Shown here piece after piece: positions 14,576 to 56,625 of a stretch of DNA of 64,000 bases. Origin of the DNA: Octopus vulgaris. Lineage: Eukaryota. Within the stretch, counting starts at the first letter, position 1; every line of letters begins with the position of its first letter. The stretch lies in assembly GCA_951406725.2 (NCBI GenBank), contig OX597840.1, forward strand, positions 12,400,001-12,464,000, read 5' to 3'. Both the position numbers and the translations under genes were made by a program. The notes under the pieces are model-generated. The model was given only the letters and a program-made list of their open reading frames with translations. It searched no databases and was not told the origin of the DNA.

Positions 14576-15314
14576 CTGGTAAGTTCACTGTCATCAATTC
14601 ACCATAGGGAAAGTTCACCATCAGGAATGTTCTCTGTGAGGAAAGTTCACCACAAGGAAAGTTTACAGAGAGATAAATTCACAATAAAAGAATTAAAAAA
14701 AGCATTATTTTCGAACTCTAAAGTTCATGGTGAACTTTCTTCATGGTGAATTTTTCTTCATGGTAATCTTCCTTCATGGTGAACTTCCTTCATGGTGAAT
14801 TTTCTTCATGGTGAAATTTCTTCACAGTGAACTTTTTCACAGTAAACTTTCTTCATGGTGAACTTTCTTCACGGTGAACTTCCTTCATGGTGAACTTCTT
14901 TCATAGTGAAATTTCTTCAAAGTGAACTTTCTTCACAATGAACTTCCTTCACAGTGAACTTTCCTCACAGTGAACTTCGTTCATGGTGAATTTCGTTCAT
15001 GGTGAACTTCATTCATGGTGAACTTCGTTCATGGTGACCTTTGTTCACGGTGAACTTCCTTCACAGTCAACTTCCTTCAATGTGAACTTTCTTCACATTG
15101 AACTTCCTTTATGGTGAAATTTCTTCACGGTGAAATTTCTTCACGGTGAAATTTCTTCACAATGAACTTTCCTCGCAGTGAACTTCCTTCATGGTGAACT
15201 TTCTTCATGGTGAATTTTTCTTCATGGTGAACTTCCTTCATGGTGAACTTCCTTCATGGTGAATTGACGGTGGTGAATTCTCTTGCAATGAATTGTTGCT
15301 GGTGAAATTACCAG
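14576..15314. mobile_element. Foldback-like element with an expanded 16-bp subterminal repeat
   Basis: Termini CTGGTAAGTTCAC / GTGAAATTACCAG. About 30 copies of CATGGTGAACTTCCTT at 14725-15265 and a few inverted copies at 14580-14685. Confidence 0.65.
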
Positions 15315-19614: not shown

Positions 19615-20455
19615 TACATACATGTGTATATATACACATAAATAAATATACACAATATGTATATACATGCATATGCATTCACACACATAAATACACATAT
19701 ACTTACATGTTTGTTTGTAAAGAAAGTAGTTTCAATGATAGATAAAATATTTATAGGACTTCAATAGAGTGAAAAGAAATTCTACTATATTTGGTTTGAT
19801 CAGAATGAATGATATTTTATAGATTCTCAATGCATTTCATTTGTTATTACCATTCTCTCTCATATTCTATAGCTTTTCCGGTTTGGATATAACATTCAAA
19901 ATATAAATCTTAGGAAAATCATTAGAAAATATATCCATCACTTATGCACACATGCATCCATTTACACACACAAACCAACAAACACTCTCACAAACTAAAA
20001 TCTGTTTATTTATTTTAAAATGATGAGAAGATTTTCCAACCATTCTTTATTTTGGAAAAATATTTATATATTCTAAATATTGCTTTTAATTCAGCTGGAG
20101 ATCTTTGTGAATTGAGGGTTTTAAAGAAAACATTTTAAACAACAATGAAATGAATTTTCTTTAAGAATTATCAACAACATTCTGTACAGTCATGAAATAT
20201 TTAGATTCACACATCATACATATTTATTTTGTTTAGTCATTCACATATACATTTGTATATCCTCATTGATATATATTTGCATATATATATATATATATAA
20301 CATAAGGGACTAAAGCCATCTGAATATGGCTAGGGACAGGGCAGGGTGGTGGGGGTGTTACTGTTGCATTTAGCCCCAGGCGAACATCGACGTCACCAGA
20401 AAGGCTCGACACCGTCACGGTGCCCTAAACCTGCAAAGGGAGGTAATTCCCCGAT

Positions 20456-20529
20456 GAAGCGGAAACCACACACGGACCATGGTTTCAAGGTGTATTGCCT
20501 ATCATCGGCGTGTGGTAGGCCTCCGCTTC
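20456..20529 (-). ncRNA. Type I hammerhead ribozyme (left-arm copy 1)
   Basis: Identical copy, 359-bp period. Confidence 0.85.
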
Positions 20530-20814
20530 CTCGACGAATTCTCACCATGCAGGATTTCTTATATAGATTTTCAAGCAAAATACATTTGCTGATTTCGAAA
20601 ATCTGTTCGAAAGCAATAATAATTCTCTAAAAGGGATATAGACAGTAACTGCTCGATAACATAAGGGACTAAAGCCATCTGAATATGGCTAGGGACAGGG
20701 CAGGGTGGTGGGGGTGTTACTGTTGCATTTAGCCCCAGGCGAACATCGACGTCACCAGAAAGGCTCGACACCGTCACGGTGCCCTAAACCTGCAAAGGGA
20801 GGTAATTCCCCGAT

Positions 20815-20888
20815 GAAGCGGAAACCACACACGGACCATGGTTTCAAGGTGTATTGCCTATCATCGGCGTGTGGTAGGCCTCCGCTTC
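20815..20888 (-). ncRNA. Type I hammerhead ribozyme (left-arm copy 2)
   Basis: Identical copy, 359-bp period. Confidence 0.85.
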
Positions 20889-21173
20889 CTCGACGAATTC
20901 TCACCATGCAGGATTTCTTATATAGATTTTCAAGCAAAATACATTTGCTGATTTCGAAAATCTGTTCGAAAGCAATAATAATTCTCTAAAAGGGATATAG
21001 ACAGTAACTGCTCGATAACATAAGGGACCAAAGCCATCTGAATATGGCTAGGGACAGGGCAGGGTGGTGGGGGTGTTACTGTTGCATTTAGCCCCAGGCG
21101 AACATCGACGTCACCAGAAAGGCTCGACACCGTCACGGTGCCCTAAACCTGCAAAGGGAGGTAATTCCCCGAT

Positions 21174-21247
21174 GAAGCGGAAACCACACACGGACCATGG
21201 TTTCAAGGTGTATTGCCTATCATCGGCGTGTGGTAGGCCTCCGCTTC
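21174..21247 (-). ncRNA. Type I hammerhead ribozyme (left-arm copy 3)
   Basis: Reverse complement of 21452-21525. Confidence 0.85.
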
Positions 21248-21451
21248 CTCGACGAATTCTCACCATGCAGGATTTCTTATATAGATTTTCAAGCAAAATA
21301 CATTTGCTGATTTCGAAAATCTGTTCGAAAGCAATAATAATTCTCTAAAAGGGATATAGACAGTAACTGCTCGAACAGATTTTCGAAATCAGCAAATGTA
21401 TTTTGCTTGAAAATCTATATAAGAAATCCTGCATGGTGAGAATTCGTCGAG

Positions 21452-21525
21452 GAAGCGGAGGCCTACCACACGCCGATGATAGGCAATACACCTTGAAACC
21501 ATGGTCCGTGTGTGGTTTCCGCTTC
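21452..21525 (+). ncRNA. Type I hammerhead ribozyme (variant core CCGAUGA), predicted cleavage after GUC at 21506
   Basis: CACACG-CCGATGA-T-AGG-caataca-CCT-T-GAAA-CCATGG-TC-CGTGTG. Stem I continues past a bulge as GAAGCGGAGGCC/GGTTTCCGCTTC. Stem III is palindromic. Confidence 0.85.
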
Positions 21526-21810
21526 ATCGGGGAATTACCTCCCTTTGCAGGTTTAGGGCACCGTGACGGTGTCGAGCCTTTCTGGTGACGTCGATGTTCG
21601 CCTGGGGCTAAATGCAACAGTAACACCCCCACCACCCTGCCCTGTCCCTAGCCATATTCAGATGGCTTTAGTCCCTTATGTTATCGAGCAGTTACTGTCT
21701 ATATCCCTTTTAGAGAATTATTATTGCTTTCGAACAGATTTTCGAAATCAGCAAATGTATTTTGCTTGAAAATCTATATAAGAAATCCTGCATGGTGAGA
21801 ATTCGTCGAG

Positions 21811-21884
21811 GAAGCGGAGGCCTACCACACGCCGATGATAGGCAATACACCTTGAAACCATGGTCCGTGTGTGGTTTCCGCTTC
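21811..21884 (+). ncRNA. Type I hammerhead ribozyme, cleavage after 21865
   Basis: Identical copy 359 bp downstream of 21452-21525. Confidence 0.85.
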
Positions 21885-22085
21885 ATCGGGGAATTACCTC
21901 CCTTTGCAGGTTTAGGGCACCGTGACGGTGTCGAGCCTTTCTGGTGACGTCGATGTTCGCCTGGGGCTAAATGCAACAGTAACACCCCCACCACCCTGCC
22001 CTGTCCCTAGCCATATTCAGATGGCTTTAGTCCCTTATGTTATCGAGCAGTTACTGTCTATATCCCTTTTAGAGAATTATTATTG

Positions 22086-22161
<76 letters not shown>

Positions 22162-22192
22162 GTATATATATATGTATATATATATGTATATA

Positions 22193-22245
<53 letters not shown>

Positions 22246-22650
22246 ACACACACATATTTATATATATATATTATCCAAAGTGTACAATGCTATATATCAA
22301 TCATGGCTGATCTTATCAATTGGTTTCGTGCTAGGGGTACAACAGAATGTAAGGTAAGAATCCGATTATATAACCCTATGCTCATCAGAAGTGGCCAATA
22401 TGGAATGAAATATGGTAACTGCATCTTTTTCCTAAACTGATAGATATATATATATATATATATATTTCGAGCCTACGCTCTTCTATAGAAAGGGACACAG
22501 AAAAAACAAGGAGAGAAAAAAATGTGTGTAGTGGCTAACGATCTATCGTGGCGACTAGTGCCGGACAGAAGAGTCAGACACGAGGAGGAAAGTAGGGGAG
22601 ATGGAAACTGAAAGAAGCCCATCGTATATATATATATATATATATATAGG

Positions 22651-26974: not shown

Positions 26975-27920
26975 ATTTTTTTTTGCTGCTATTTTTAGCA
27001 GTCTGAATGACCACATAGCTGTTCCTGAGTCAGGCAGTGCATTGCATTCTTGAGCAAAACACTTCATTTCATGTTGCTCCAGTTCACTCAGCTGGCAAAA
27101 ATGAGTAAACCCTGTAAGGGACCAGTGTTCCATTCAGGGAAGAATGTTGCAATCTTGATCACTCAATCACCATGGAAACTGAGTAACCGGTCCTACACTT
27201 CCACGAACTCAGATAAATTTTGCTGCTATTTCTAGCAGTCTGAATGACCACATAAATGTTCCTAGAGTGGGCAGTACAATGTGTTCTTGAGCAAAACACT
27301 TCATTTCATGTTGCTCCAGTCCACTCAGCTGGCAAAAATGAGTAACCCTGCAAGGGACCAGTGTTCCATTCAGGGAGGAATATTGCAATCTCAATCCCTC
27401 AATCACCATGGAAATAGAGTAACCGGTCCTACACTTCCACGAACTCAGATAATTTTTGCTGCTATTTCTAGCAGTCTGAATGACCACATAGATGTTCCTA
27501 GAGTGGGCAGTACAATGTGTTCTTGAGCAAAACACTTCATTTTATGTTGCTCCAGTCCACTCAGCTGGCAAAAATGAGTAAACCCTGCAAGGGACCACTC
27601 TTCCATTCATGGAGGAATATTGCAATCTTGATCACTCAATCACCATGGAAACTGAGTAACCGGTCCTACACTTTCACGAACTCAGATAAATTTTGCTGCT
27701 ATTTCTAGCAGTCCGAATGACCACATAGAGGTTCCCAAACCGGGCAGTGCATTGCAGTCTTGAGCAAAACACTTCATTCCACGTTACTCCAGTTCATTCA
27801 GCTCTACATATGTTATCCTGCAATTGACTGGTATCCCATTCAGAGAAAAATCCTGTGATCTTAGTCACTCAATCACCATGGAAACTAAGCAGCTGGTCTT
27901 ATGAACCTTCCGATTCAGAA
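26975..27920. repeat. About four tandem 236-237-bp SINE-derived units
   Basis: GTCYGAATGACC at 27001, 27238, 27474 and 27711. Confidence 0.88.
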
Positions 27921-36183: not shown

Positions 36184-36255
36184 TGCGTCGGCCGGGAGTC
36201 GGACCCGGATCGACTGCTTGGAAGGCAACCATGCTAACTGTTACACCACCGACGC
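36184..36255 (-). tRNA. tRNA-Gly(TCC) gene or recent pseudogene
   Basis: 72-nt cloverleaf GCGTCGG...CCGACGCA with anticodon loop CTTCCAA and downstream T runs. The D-loop lacks GG and the T-loop reads TCCGA. Confidence 0.85.
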
Positions 36256-41366: not shown

Positions 41367-44300
41367 TTGTGTGTCTGTTTGTCCCCACAACATCACTTGA
41401 CAACCGATGCTGGTGTGTTTACGTCCCCGTAACTTAGCAGTTCGGCAAAAGAGACCGATAGAATAAGTACTAGGCTTACAAAGAATAAGTCCTGGGGTCG
41501 ATTTGCTCGACTAAAGGTGGTGCTCCGGCATGGCCACAGTCAAATGACTGAAACAAGTAAAAGAGTAAACTTAGCGGTTCTCAAAAGGGACCGATAGAAT
41601 AAGTACTAGGCTTACAAAGAATAAGTCCTGGGGTCGATTTGCTCGAATAAAGGCGGTGCTCCAGCATGGCCACAGTCAAATGACTGAAACAATTAAAAGA
41701 AGATTTTGTTACTGTACACAGAGTTTTCTCTTACTTTTTCTTCCATGTTTCTGTTGTACATTTGCCATGAGTGGAGTTTGGTGTTTCACCGAGTTTGTGA
41801 ATGAAAAATGTATTTCTTTGGCCGCATGTAGAAGTAACTAATGACACTCATGAACAATTAATAGAAGATTTTGTTACTGTACACAGAGTTTTCTGTGTTG
41901 GCCTTTTAATGAATACTAACAGCGACAATTACACACTGGCAGAGACATACAGCTAGGATCTACAACAAACTATAAGCAATCTGTGGCTGGCCCATCACAA
42001 ATGAAAAATAATTGTACTATATTCATGGCAACAAAAGTTCCTGTCTCAAGCAGATGGATGTGGAGATGGGAATGGCAACACCATGCAGCTGCCTCAACAT
42101 TATGCAATTATTGCCAAAGTCTACCTTTATTTAGAGCAACTGGAGAAGGTTCAGAAAACCAAATCATGCGATGGCTTGCCACTGATTGATTGCTTAGTAG
42201 ACTGATCATGTGAAACAACTGTGGTTTGATTGTGATGTCTACTTGGCTACTGGGTGATTCGGTTTTGAATTACTGCTACACCTTTATCCAAGGCTACACA
42301 CAAATTGAACTCAAAGCCATTTGATTACAGGCGTAGGAGTGGCTGTGTGGTAAGTAGCCTGCTTACCAACAACATGGTTCCGGGTTCAGTCCTACTGCGT
42401 TGCACCTTGGGCAAGTGTCTTCTACTATAGCCTCGGGCCGACCAAAGCCTTGTGAATGGATTTGGTAGATGGAAACTGAAAGAAGCCCGTTGTATATATG
42501 CATATATATATGTATGTGTATGTCTATATTTGTGTGTCTGTGTTTGTCCCCCCAACATCACTTGACAACTGATGCTGGTGTGTTTATGTCCCCGTAACTT
42601 AGCAGTTCGGCGAAAGAGACTGATAGAATAAGTACTGGGCTTACAAAGAATAAGTACTGTGGTCGATTTCCTCGACTAAAGGCGGTGCTCCAGCATAAAG
42701 CCATATTTTGCTCGAATCTATAAGATATTCATGCCATCCTTTCATTTACCTCTGCATTGGTGTGGAAAATAGCCATAAAACAGTGATGTATCATCATATC
42801 GATTAATTTCTTAATAAGATTTTAATGAATCAAGACAGAGCAGCTGTCTTTTTTTTAGGTTAAATGTATGATTCTCCTTATACCATGTGAAATAGCAAAC
42901 TGAAATTTCTCTCAAATCAGACCCTACCATCTTAGGACAGTAGAAGACATTACGTATATAGGTGTATATATATGTGTGTGTGTGTATTTATGTTCATGTG
43001 TGTATGCATGTTTATGTGTGTATATATATATATGTGTGTGTATACATATGTGTATATATATATATGTATATATATATATGTATATATATATATGTATGTA
43101 TATATATATGTATATATATATATGTATATATGTATATGTATATGTATGTATGTATATATATGTATATGTATGTTTATATATGTATATATATAAAAATATG
43201 TGTATTTATATATATGTATATATATGTATATATGTATATATACATTTATTTATCTGTGTGTGTGTATATATATATATATACACACATACATACATACATA
43301 CATACATACATACATACATACATACATACATACATACATACAGATAAATGTGTATATGGATGCATATATATGTGTGTGTGTAGATATATTTGTGTGTACA
43401 CACAACACATACACACACACACACACGCACACATGATTCTCAAAGAGTCAAAGTAGTATGACTGCTGTGATGCCTACTGAAGCAGAAACACATGTCCTCT
43501 TGCCTACAGGAAAGACAAGCAATGCAACCAAATGAATAAATAAAGCAGACTGTCTTTTCCTTAATGCTATGATAATTCTGGAGAGTTCTTGTGTCTTGAG
43601 ATTATCTCTTGTTCTCATCCAGTGGAGGTTGTAATGGCCTTGGGGCTTCTCATCTACCTTCTCTTCAAGTGAAGAAAATTTCTCAAAATCAAGAATTTAT
43701 CTTGTACAGTATTTAATATATCAGATCCAAATTCCTGCCTTTGGTCTCTATGAGTTTCTTCCCTTCACTCAGTTTTGTTTAAAAATATCTATGTGGTAAG
43801 AAGCTTGTTTCCCAACCACATGGTTCCGGGTTCAGTCCCACTGTGTGGTACTTTGAGTAAGTGTCTTCTGCTATAGCCTCAGACTGACCAAAGCCTAGTG
43901 AGTGGGTTTGGTGGATGGAAACTGAAAGAATCCCTTCAAATATATATATACTCTTTACTCTTTTACTCTTTTACTTGTTTCAGTCATTTGACAGCAGCCA
44001 TGCTGGAGCACCGCCTTTTTAGTCGAGTAAATCGACCCCAGGACTTATTCTTTGTAAGCCCAGTACTTATTCTATCAGTCTCTTTTGCTGAACCGCTAAG
44101 TTACGGGGACGTAAACACACCACCATCGGTTGTCAAGCAATGGTTGGGGGATAAACACAGACACACAAACATATACACACATACACATACATACATATAT
44201 ACGACGGGCTTCTTCCAGTTTCTGTCTACCAGATCCACTCACAAGGCTTTGGTCGGCCCGAGGCTATAGTAGAAGACACTTGCCCAAAGTACCACGCAGT

Positions 44301-47664: not shown

Positions 47665-48081
47665 TTATTTCTTTACTGCCCACAAGGGGCTACACACAGA
47701 GGGGACAAACAAGGACAGACAAACGGATTAAGTCAATTATATCGACCCCAGTGCGTAACTGGTACTCATTTAATCAACCCCGAAAGGATGAAAGGCAAAG
47801 TCAACCTTGGCAGAGTTTGAACTCAGAACGTAGCAGCAGATGAAATACCTATTTCTTTATTACCCACAAGGGGCTAAACACAGAGGGAACAAACAAGGAC
47901 AGACATAGGTATTAAGTCGATTACATCAACCCCAGTGTGTAACTGATACTTAATTTATCGACCCCGAAAGGATGAAAGGCAAAGTCGACGTCGGAGGAAT
48001 TTGAACTCACAATGTAACGCAGACGAAATACCGCTAAGCATTTCACCCAGCGTGCTAACGTTTCTGCCAGCTCGCAGCCTT
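47665..48081 (-). repeat. SINE family B with two tandem bodies
   Basis: Same junction at about 47849. Confidence 0.85.
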
Positions 48082-53311: not shown

Positions 53312-54066
53312 TATTTCTTTACTGTCCACAAGGGGCTACACACAGAAGGGACGAAAAAGGATGCACAAACAGATTAAGTTGATTAGATTGACCCCAGTGT
53401 GTAACTGGTACTTATTTAATCGACCCTGAAAGGATGAAAGGCAAAGTCGACCTTGGCGGAATTTGAACTCAGAACATAGCGGCAGACGAAATACCTATTT
53501 CTTTACTACCCACAAGGGGCTAAACACAGAGAGTACAAACAAGGACAGACAAACGGATTAAGTCAATTATATTGACCCCAGTGCATAACTGGTACTTATT
53601 TAATTGACCCCGAAAGGATGAAAGGCAAAGTCGACCTCAGCAGAATTTGAACTCAGAACGTAACGACAGACGAAATACCTATTTCTTTACTGCCCACAAG
53701 GGGCTAAACACAGAGCGGACAAACGGATTAAGTCGATTATATTGACCCCAGTGCGTAACTGGTACTTATTTAATCGACCCTGAAAGGATGAAAGGCAAAG
53801 TCGAACCTCGGCGGAATTTGAACTCAGAACATAGCGGCAGACGAAATACCTATTTCTTTACTATCCACAAGGGGCTAAACACAGAGAGTACAAACACAGA
53901 GTGGACAAATGGATTAAGTCAATTATATTGACCCCAGTGCGTAACTGGTGCTTATTTAATTGACCCCGAAAGGATGAAAGGCAAAGTCGACCTCGGCGGA
54001 ATTTGAACCCAGAACGTAAAGACAAACGAAATACGGCTAAGCATTTCGCCCGGTGTGCTAACCGAA
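53312..54066 (-). repeat. SINE family B with four tandem bodies
   Basis: Junction GACGAAATACCTATTTCTTTA at about 53495, 53679 and 53850. Confidence 0.88.
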
Positions 54067-55813: not shown

Positions 55814-56625
55814 CAGTTCTATATTTAAGAGACAAGAAACTATGTACATTATTTACATTATTTATATTTGTCCTCATCTTGTTTGTTGTTAACACAACGT
55901 TTCGGCTGATATACCCTTCATCAGTTGCTTTGGGGATATTTTGAACTTGGGTTCTCATTCCTAAGGTATTTTTTTTTTATGTTGTTATTATTATTAAGGT
56001 CACTGCCTGGAATCGAACTCAGAATCTTGGGGTTAGTAGCCCATGCTCTTACCACTACGCCATATGCCCACAGGCATTTTGCGTAGTGGGTAAGAGCACA
56101 GGCTACTAACCCCAAGGGCATATGGTGTAGTGGTTAAGAGCTACTAACCCCAAGGGCATATGGTGTAGTGGTTAAAAGCTAGTAACCCCAAGGGCATATA
56201 GCGTAGTAGTTAAGAGCTACTAACCCCAAGGGCATATGGTGTAGTGGTTTAGAGCTACTAACCCCAAGGGCATATAGCGTAGTAGTTAAGAGCTACTAAC
56301 CCCAAGGGCATATGGAATAGTGGTTAAGAGCTAGTAACCCCAAGGGCATATGGTGTAGTGGTTAAGAGTAAGTAACCCCAAGGGAATATGGCGTAGTGGT
56401 TAAGAGCACAGGCTTCTAACCCCAAGATTCCAAGTTCGATTCTAGGCAGTGACCTTAATAATAATAATAACAACATAAAAAAAAAATACCTTAGGAATGA
56501 GAACCCAGGTTCAAAATTTCCGCAAGACACCTGATGAAGGCTGGAGGGTATATCAGCCAAAATGTGTTAACAACAAACAAGATGAGGACAAATATCCATC
56601 AAATATAAATAATGTAAATAATGTA
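55814..56625. mobile_element. Palindromic element: two divergent tRNA-like heads, each followed by (AAT)n and a minimal HHR
   Basis: About 55840-56070 is the reverse complement of 56382-56625. A box TGGCGTAGTGG, B box GTTCGATTC, GACAC-CTGATGA-A-GGCTG..CAGCC at 56526-56558, and CCGAAACGTTGTGTT on the minus arm. Confidence 0.7.
56116..56381 (+). repeat. Seven tandem 38-bp units derived from the 5' half of the tRNA-like head
   Basis: GGGCATATGGTGTAGTGGTTAAGAGCTACTAACCCCAA repeated with period 38. Confidence 0.9.

Follow-up and report, generated by a model that had tools for sequence, protein, structure and literature searches.

The insertion at positions 20297-22087 of the window, by which we mean the whole stretch of 64,000 nucleotides of Octopus vulgaris DNA analysed here, is a retrozyme with the insertion footprint of a Penelope-like element (PLE). 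We consider it likely that this hammerhead retrozyme copy was written by a PLE endonuclease/reverse transcriptase (RT) priming from both ends of one break, here probably on a circular, single-unit RNA. The anatomy, two fixed ends (A and B), their pairing as one of each per locus, the scattered microhomologous inner ends and the uniform haplotypes are all read directly from the genome. The window locus is an ordinary family member, and the interest is carried by the family-level pattern; retrozymes, as well as the inverted and tail structures of PLEs, are already published. An initial annotation of this DNA had proposed a direct footprint of circular RNA retrotransposition; what the locus records instead is a footprint of two-site priming.

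Anatomy of the insertion

The insertion measures 1791 bp (5x359 - 4) and lies between two (TA)n runs, beyond each of which the DNA is unique and differs between left and right (Table 1). A 359-nt unit is present 3.0 times in one direction and 2.0 times in the opposite one, a repeat and a geometry far beyond chance. Unit position 1 corresponds to window position 21371, and the predicted ribozyme cut falls after unit position 136. The arm lengths of 3x359+1 and 2x359-1 and the joint at a shared TCGA were correctly described in the initial annotation, and the 717-bp palindrome with a 42-nt spacer that it reported (20612-21328 against 21371-22087) stands in its geometry and falls short of perfection by one mismatch. 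Since the element terminates in TAT or T beside TA repeats, its outer ends can be placed only to within 1-3 nt. The 359-nt unit contains no open reading frame (ORF), its longest stop-free stretch being 98 codons, and no PLE protein match was found within the 64-kb window.

Table 1. Features of the retrozyme insertion and its flanks (window coordinates)
Feature	Position	Strand	Remarks
Left (TA)n target remnant	20280-20296	.	boundary uncertain by up to 3 nt, element ending in TAT
Arm B, three units	20297-21374	-	1078 nt = 3x359+1; outer (3') end = fixed site B, unit position 314
Hammerhead-like motif, arm B	20469-20514	-	predicted cut at 20475
Hammerhead-like motif, arm B	20828-20873	-	predicted cut at 20834
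Hammerhead-like motif, arm B	21187-21232	-	predicted cut at 21193
Sole difference among the five units (A300G in sense), breaking the perfect palindrome	21029		
42-nt unpaired spacer	21329-21370	-	unit positions 318-359, between the two fixed ends
TCGA microhomology common to both arms	21371-21374	.	head-to-head joint
Arm A, two units minus 1 nt	21371-22087	+	717 nt = 2x359-1; outer (3') end = fixed site A, unit position 358
Rare variant G65	21435 (+), also 21794, 21264, 20905, 20546		5/5 units of both arms
Hammerhead-like motif, arm A, first copy	21467-21512	+	predicted cut after 21506
Hammerhead-like motif, arm A, second copy	21826-21871	+	predicted cut after 21865
44-nt PLE-type 'tail'	22044-22087	+	unit positions 315-358, A end only
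Right (TA)n target remnant	22088-22271	.	

The 3+2 inversion at this locus rests on the assembly. None of the public-run contigs shown bridges the TCGA joint, and the junctions with the TA flanks had been passed over as repetitive, as may be expected if the inversion were an artefact of assembly or of fold-back reads; such an origin is nevertheless highly improbable, as the arms are unequal, end at different, family-typical sites, adjoin different flanks and carry the mismatch at 21029, and as this architecture recurs at 90 other loci. Contigs of the public runs X1 and X4 moreover contain head-to-head joints at many further unit positions, and the architecture therefore exists outside this assembly. 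One 389-nt contig of run X3, a run only guessed to be RNA, is identical to the haplotype of the window locus; it is not counted for expression or circularity, since 359+30 nt is the collapse expected of a circle and of a tandem array alike.

The hammerhead-like motif

A motif scan revealed five identical type I hammerhead-like motifs, one per unit, all pointing away from the centre, in agreement with the divergent sense strands noted in the initial annotation. Each consists of stem I, the core CCGAUGA, a stem II with a U-U at its base, GAAA, a two-pair stem III with a CAUG loop, and GUC. Core position 4, usually U in the hammerhead consensus, is C here; no Rfam hammerhead model matched, either at gathering level or at E<=10. 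The compensatory stem I pair C99T/G140A occurs in 5/5 loci carrying C99T. An outer end at the predicted ribozyme cut is ruled out for 20297-22087, as had already been recognised, the two ends lying at unit positions 314 and 358.

Older subfamilies (L099, L087, L112, L119 and others), at about 85% identity, retain the same two ends; some of this group have a UUGA core, which in three loci is accompanied by a G8-to-A change. An older, diverged hammerhead-bearing relic (L032, 345-574) lies about 420 bp from a young array of 22 units and was excluded from the arms of that locus.

The window contains further repeats. SINE-like pieces make up tandem arrays of 237, 136 and 184 nt at 26981-27803, 41431-41700, 47666-48032 and 53312-54034, in which the motif scan found no hammerhead-like motif. 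Eight head-to-tail copies of a 38-nt unit lie inside an apparent tRNA-derived SINE head (56102-56407), and an Rfam tRNA match of 56.5 bits on the minus strand (36184-36255) is possibly another such head. A 16-nt minisatellite of about 34 copies spans 14724-15263, with an inverted partial array just upstream (14598-14663).

Two fixed ends, one of each per locus

Searching the animal's own 2.8-Gb genome gave at least 255 matches (40 of 639 candidates scored). The 359-nt element is a non-coding tandem unit that is dispersed, multi-copy and mobile. From the 150 matches listed, 39 loci were fetched by full-unit similarity; a further 78 loci on chromosome 1 were picked by an exact end junction and one more array was added, which together with the window locus makes a set of 119 (118 others), L149 being excluded as a duplicate of L066. 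Among the 215 outer ends of this set, 86 lie exactly at unit position 314 (site B) and 92 exactly at 358 (site A), two sites that are 44 nt apart. Because 78 loci had been picked by one end, the unbiased figure is that of the other 39, in which 65/70 outer ends are at A or B. Genome-wide, exact junctions with TA number 757 for the A end and 541 for the B end, with none in the controls; the family is put at 500-750 loci. The window locus has one A and one B end; these are therefore standard family ends and not the variable permutation points proposed at first. That annotation had set against its own model the outcome that all other loci begin and end at one fixed position such as the cleavage site, and the ends are indeed fixed, yet at two sites, neither of which is the cut.

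Back-to-back arms are present in 95 of the 119 loci, 23 were scored as single-armed and one is of another kind; some of the 'single' loci conceal a very short opposite arm. The 95 back-to-back loci comprise 91 with A+B, four with an irregular end, and none with A+A or B+B, although half of the loci would have two like ends if the site were chosen independently at each end. On chromosome 1, an opposite B arm was found in 49/61 of the loci picked by their A end. Both flanks are TA-rich in 79/86 simple two-arm loci, and the A and B arms may be placed left or right. A few loci (L102, L123, L126, L091, L113 and L116) hold only about the tail. The strict A+B pairing, which recurs at the ends of a PLE family of this genome (see below), supports priming from both ends of one break, and the claim that both ends of a break in (TA)n carry arms of cDNA polarity is thereby upheld. 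Among the features that had been expected at other loci, divergent polarity and TA targets recur, whereas variable permutation points and integer-length arms do not.

In the twin priming of L1 elements, both target ends prime cDNA and give divergent sense strands joined by microhomology, the second primer annealing at a variable internal point and so bounding the first arm. Here, in contrast, neither site varies, and site B seldom forms the boundary of arm A: such blocking is at chance level, being seen within 3 nt in 2/86 two-arm loci.

Arm lengths and inner joints

Arms range from 0.14 to 15 units across the family and their inner ends are scattered. The whole-number arms of the window locus, both within 1 nt of multiples of 359, had led the initial annotation to free permutation points on a circle, with each polymerase halting after a whole number of turns. 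Among 105 arms longer than 300 nt, two are within 2 nt of an integer length (1.46 expected), both from the window locus, and four within 5 nt (3.2 expected), and whole-number turns as a general rule are rejected, near-integer lengths being at chance level. The window locus is the only one of the 86 simple two-arm loci with both arms near-integer; that both should fall within 2 nt has a probability of about 2e-4 at one given locus and of about 0.11 at some locus among 600. With the outer ends fixed as well, the model of whole turns from free permutation points deserves almost no credence, and the whole-number lengths at 20297-22087 are coincidental and without special information. It is owing to this coincidence that the 42-nt spacer, the stretch between the two sites, is exposed.

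That the arms join through microhomology, as originally claimed, is confirmed across the family. Clean joints, with no inserted bases, were found in 66/86 loci, of which 28 have a microhomology of at least 2 nt (15.6% expected) and eight of at least 4 nt (1.8% expected). A TCGA palindrome lies just after each priming site (positions 314 and 1), which favours the TCGA joint seen in the window; this joint is an ordinary case for the family. At six loci (L076, L079, L083, L117, L146 and L036) the joint is complex, a short additional segment of the unit being interposed between the arms, which points to template jumps ahead of the joining.

A single primed cDNA might instead fold back and copy itself, an endonuclease then resolving the hairpin at the second fixed site. 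The microhomology signature would be the same, and both the nearby inner ends of short insertions and the innermost units that the two arms share at L042 and L148 (discussed below) would be explained; the PLE tail has likewise been attributed to endonuclease resolution of an intermediate (PMC8557442). However, among 22 loci with both arms below one lap, 13 have in each arm sequence that is absent from the other, which rules out simple fold-back copying of one arm from its partner; the longer arm may be of either kind (B in 35/86), and both tail boundaries are reverse-transcription start sites in vitro (PMC11167929). Fold-back copying is in our judgement very unlikely.

Circular or linear template

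Within a locus both arms have one haplotype in common, the differences in 35 loci averaging 0.74 between the arms of one locus as against 11.9 between loci. Variant A80C fills 13/13 units of both arms at one locus and T31C fills 8/8 units of both arms at another, and neither is found anywhere else in the assembly; G65 is carried by 5/5 units of the window locus, and among its 12 exact genome matches no other locus has more than two. Singleton substitutions amount to two in a locus of 23 units and none in one of 14 units. Variant A80G fills one array and also a longer array elsewhere. The A80G array at G000:C6:88098467-88106253 is back-to-back, with roughly 20 units, a 360-nt period and 18 exact matches.

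The stopping points of the arms add a second line of evidence. On the first lap, 49/165 stops fall in the 100 nt before the predicted cut site and 10/116 after it, as against a weak contrast on later laps, with 25/220 before and 13/195 after (p=0.12); a pile-up of inner ends at the cut itself is absent (3/172 within 3 nt). Of 59 two-arm loci on chromosome 1, 19 have both arms ending before the cut, 29 have both running past it and 11 have arms that disagree, which is agreement in 48/59 (p=2e-6). In 18/59 of these loci the two inner ends are no more than 25 nt apart on the template (5.5 expected by permutation), but the same holds for only 2/29 of those passing the cut (2.2 expected). These figures fit a cut linear RNA for the short insertions and an endless template for the long class, which includes the window locus. 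Alternatively, the two polymerases may have aborted together in the short arms, which would likewise make their stops concordant.

Three loci are not so simply accommodated. L042 and L148 each have an innermost unit that differs from the rest and stands in register in the two arms, and the array of L032 is mixed, with T74C in 15/22 units; they fit neither a cut linear RNA nor a circle simply, and call for a multimeric linear RNA, a switch of template or conversion at a later time. The innermost block of L042 and L148 points to a mixed linear template, a joint switch of template or conversion in the middle of the palindrome. The innermost variant unit of L042 resembles another subfamily.

The chief alternative to the circle is the same two-site PLE priming on the linear multimeric transcript of an array, with uniform source arrays and, perhaps, later lengthening by unequal crossover. 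The variant block of L042 and L148 is equally far from the 3' end in the two arms, the arms of these two loci terminate at most 55 and 29 nt from a common template position, and a few variants are common to neighbouring units within one arm, all of which suits such a transcript; uncut RNA was the dominant PLE substrate in vitro (PMC11167929), and local amplification has been proposed (bioRxiv 10.64898/2026.07.22.740005). Against it speak the variants unique in the assembly that fill every unit of both inverted arms, the lack of an in-register excess among cut-passing loci, and the near-absence of singletons from the loci of 23 and 14 units, which fits creation in one step. Private variants could, for their part, derive from source arrays missing from the haploid assembly. 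On balance we regard a linear multimer as unlikely, and the template of the long arrays was probably a single unit in circular form, judging from the sequences of their units. The circular template of the initial annotation is retained as probable for the long arrays, the window locus among them and the mixed arrays excepted; the short insertions fit cut linear RNA instead.

In the scheme that we favour, two-site priming by a PLE enzyme, a presumably dimeric PLE protein would bind the retrozyme RNA at its tail and cut both strands in (TA)n, whereupon site A would serve for the extension of one 3' end and site B for that of the other. With linear monomers cut by the ribozyme, the two polymerases would stall short of the cut and produce short palindromes; on a ligated circle both would pass the cut and run for independent, arbitrary lengths, producing multi-unit arms. 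The two cDNA ends would then join by microhomology, here TCGA, and the second strands would be filled in. To the full version, in which the PLE-type enzyme works as an asymmetric pair at two RNA sites and the retrozyme is used both as cut linear monomers (for the short palindromes) and as ligated circles (for the multimers), we give an even chance.

Penelope-like elements in the same genome

A PLE with an RT and, at its C terminus, a GIY-YIG domain was found in L149 (3765-7305, G000:C2:131.24 Mb). The L149 copy is frameshifted; its family has many near-identical copies with 775-aa open frames. Elements of this type have two end sites in (TA)n, separated by about 31-35 nt, and in 7/7 distinct loci with both ends visible a long end and a short end stand back to back. 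L149 and L150-L194 represent a young autonomous PLE family whose members lie in (TA)n and have a long 3' UTR, 3' ends of two kinds and 5' arms that are inverted. The linker of the L149-type PLE carries a Cx4CxxC motif like that described for Neptune/Nematis (PMC8557442). No hammerhead was detected in this family by motif scan of eight loci. A second PLE family with 781-aa frames (L202, L204, L209, L226, L227 and others) likewise has two 3' ends, about 35-40 nt apart, in (TA)n; among 30 GIY-YIG loci, four of its ends are long and ten short.

The PLE beside L066/L149, considered as autonomous partner, has no similarity to the unit; its position in L149 is suggestive of nesting within shared TA targets. 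Similarity to the unit or to the tail was absent from 30 loci of one PLE family and from 30 GIY-YIG loci (a small share of the thousands of candidates), and as no autonomous PLE resembling either was found there, the partner is proposed from shared anatomy only.

Relation to known systems

The non-LTR retrozymes of Metazoa consist of non-coding tandem units, 170-400 nt long and each bearing one type I hammerhead, for which circular RNA templates giving tandem cDNA, and PLEs as candidate mobilisers, have been proposed, not shown (PMC7229834). With its two-pair stem III and tetraloop and the U-U at the base of stem II, the octopus motif resembles the axolotl HHR_Amex2 of that study. The arrays described in the accessible part of that study are head-to-tail only, whereas nearly all of those in the octopus stand back to back and have their two fixed ends in (TA)n; self-cleavage and circular forms, demonstrated in that study, are here predicted and proposed, respectively. 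The terms 'inverted', 'target site' and 'microsatellite' are absent from the accessible part of that paper.

PLEs in turn are known for an inverted 5'-truncated copy, a tail of 30-40 bp and a bias for TA, structures of undefined origin (PMC8557442). The retrozyme family shares with them the inverted 5'-truncated copy (95/119 loci), the tail at one end (44 nt), the (TA)n target and the lack of a discernible target-site duplication, and PLEs also have non-autonomous multicopy head-to-tail derivatives (Chlamys MRC1; PMC8557442). It differs from them in having no ORF, in the 44-nt length of its tail, slightly more than the 30-40 bp given for PLEs, and in that both arms can be long multimers. Strict pairing of one end of each kind is not stated in the accessible portion of PMC8557442.

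In vitro, Poseidon of Anolis carolinensis cuts and extends both strands at AT-rich sites; two internal RNA start sites bound the tail, with a hammerhead upstream, and the protein is a predicted dimer (PMC11167929). Poseidon differs from the present family in being autonomous and in using a linear template, and hammerhead cleavage is dispensable in vitro (PMC11167929); the two start sites are not tied to opposite ends of one insertion in the available text. A dependence of non-LTR retrozymes on PLEs has been derived from co-distribution and pLTR phylogeny, with local tandem amplification favoured (bioRxiv 10.64898/2026.07.22.740005). The evidence here is instead an insertion footprint, and no homologous pLTR was found; the part of the preprint at hand contains no analysis of ends (the terms 'tail' and 'insertion site' are absent), nor does that of PMC11722881 contain anything on ends. 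Among the papers listed by searches of a mostly non-subscription literature, no title or opening of an abstract mentions one-of-each pairing or evidence from private variants.

Significance

If the proposed mechanism is true, one two-site priming step would account for the tail, the inverted copy and the arrays, and the family would provide direct genomic evidence of an animal circular RNA as retrotransposition template. This bears on the origin of the tandem, inverted and tail structures of PLEs, left unexplained in the accessible text of PMC8557442, as well as on the circular templates proposed for retrozymes (PMC7229834). The family is at the same time a small test system, comprising a 359-nt RNA, two predicted start sites, a simple (TA)n target and young, intact PLE ORFs in the same genome, and its hundreds of near-identical insertions allow arm lengths and private variants to be counted.
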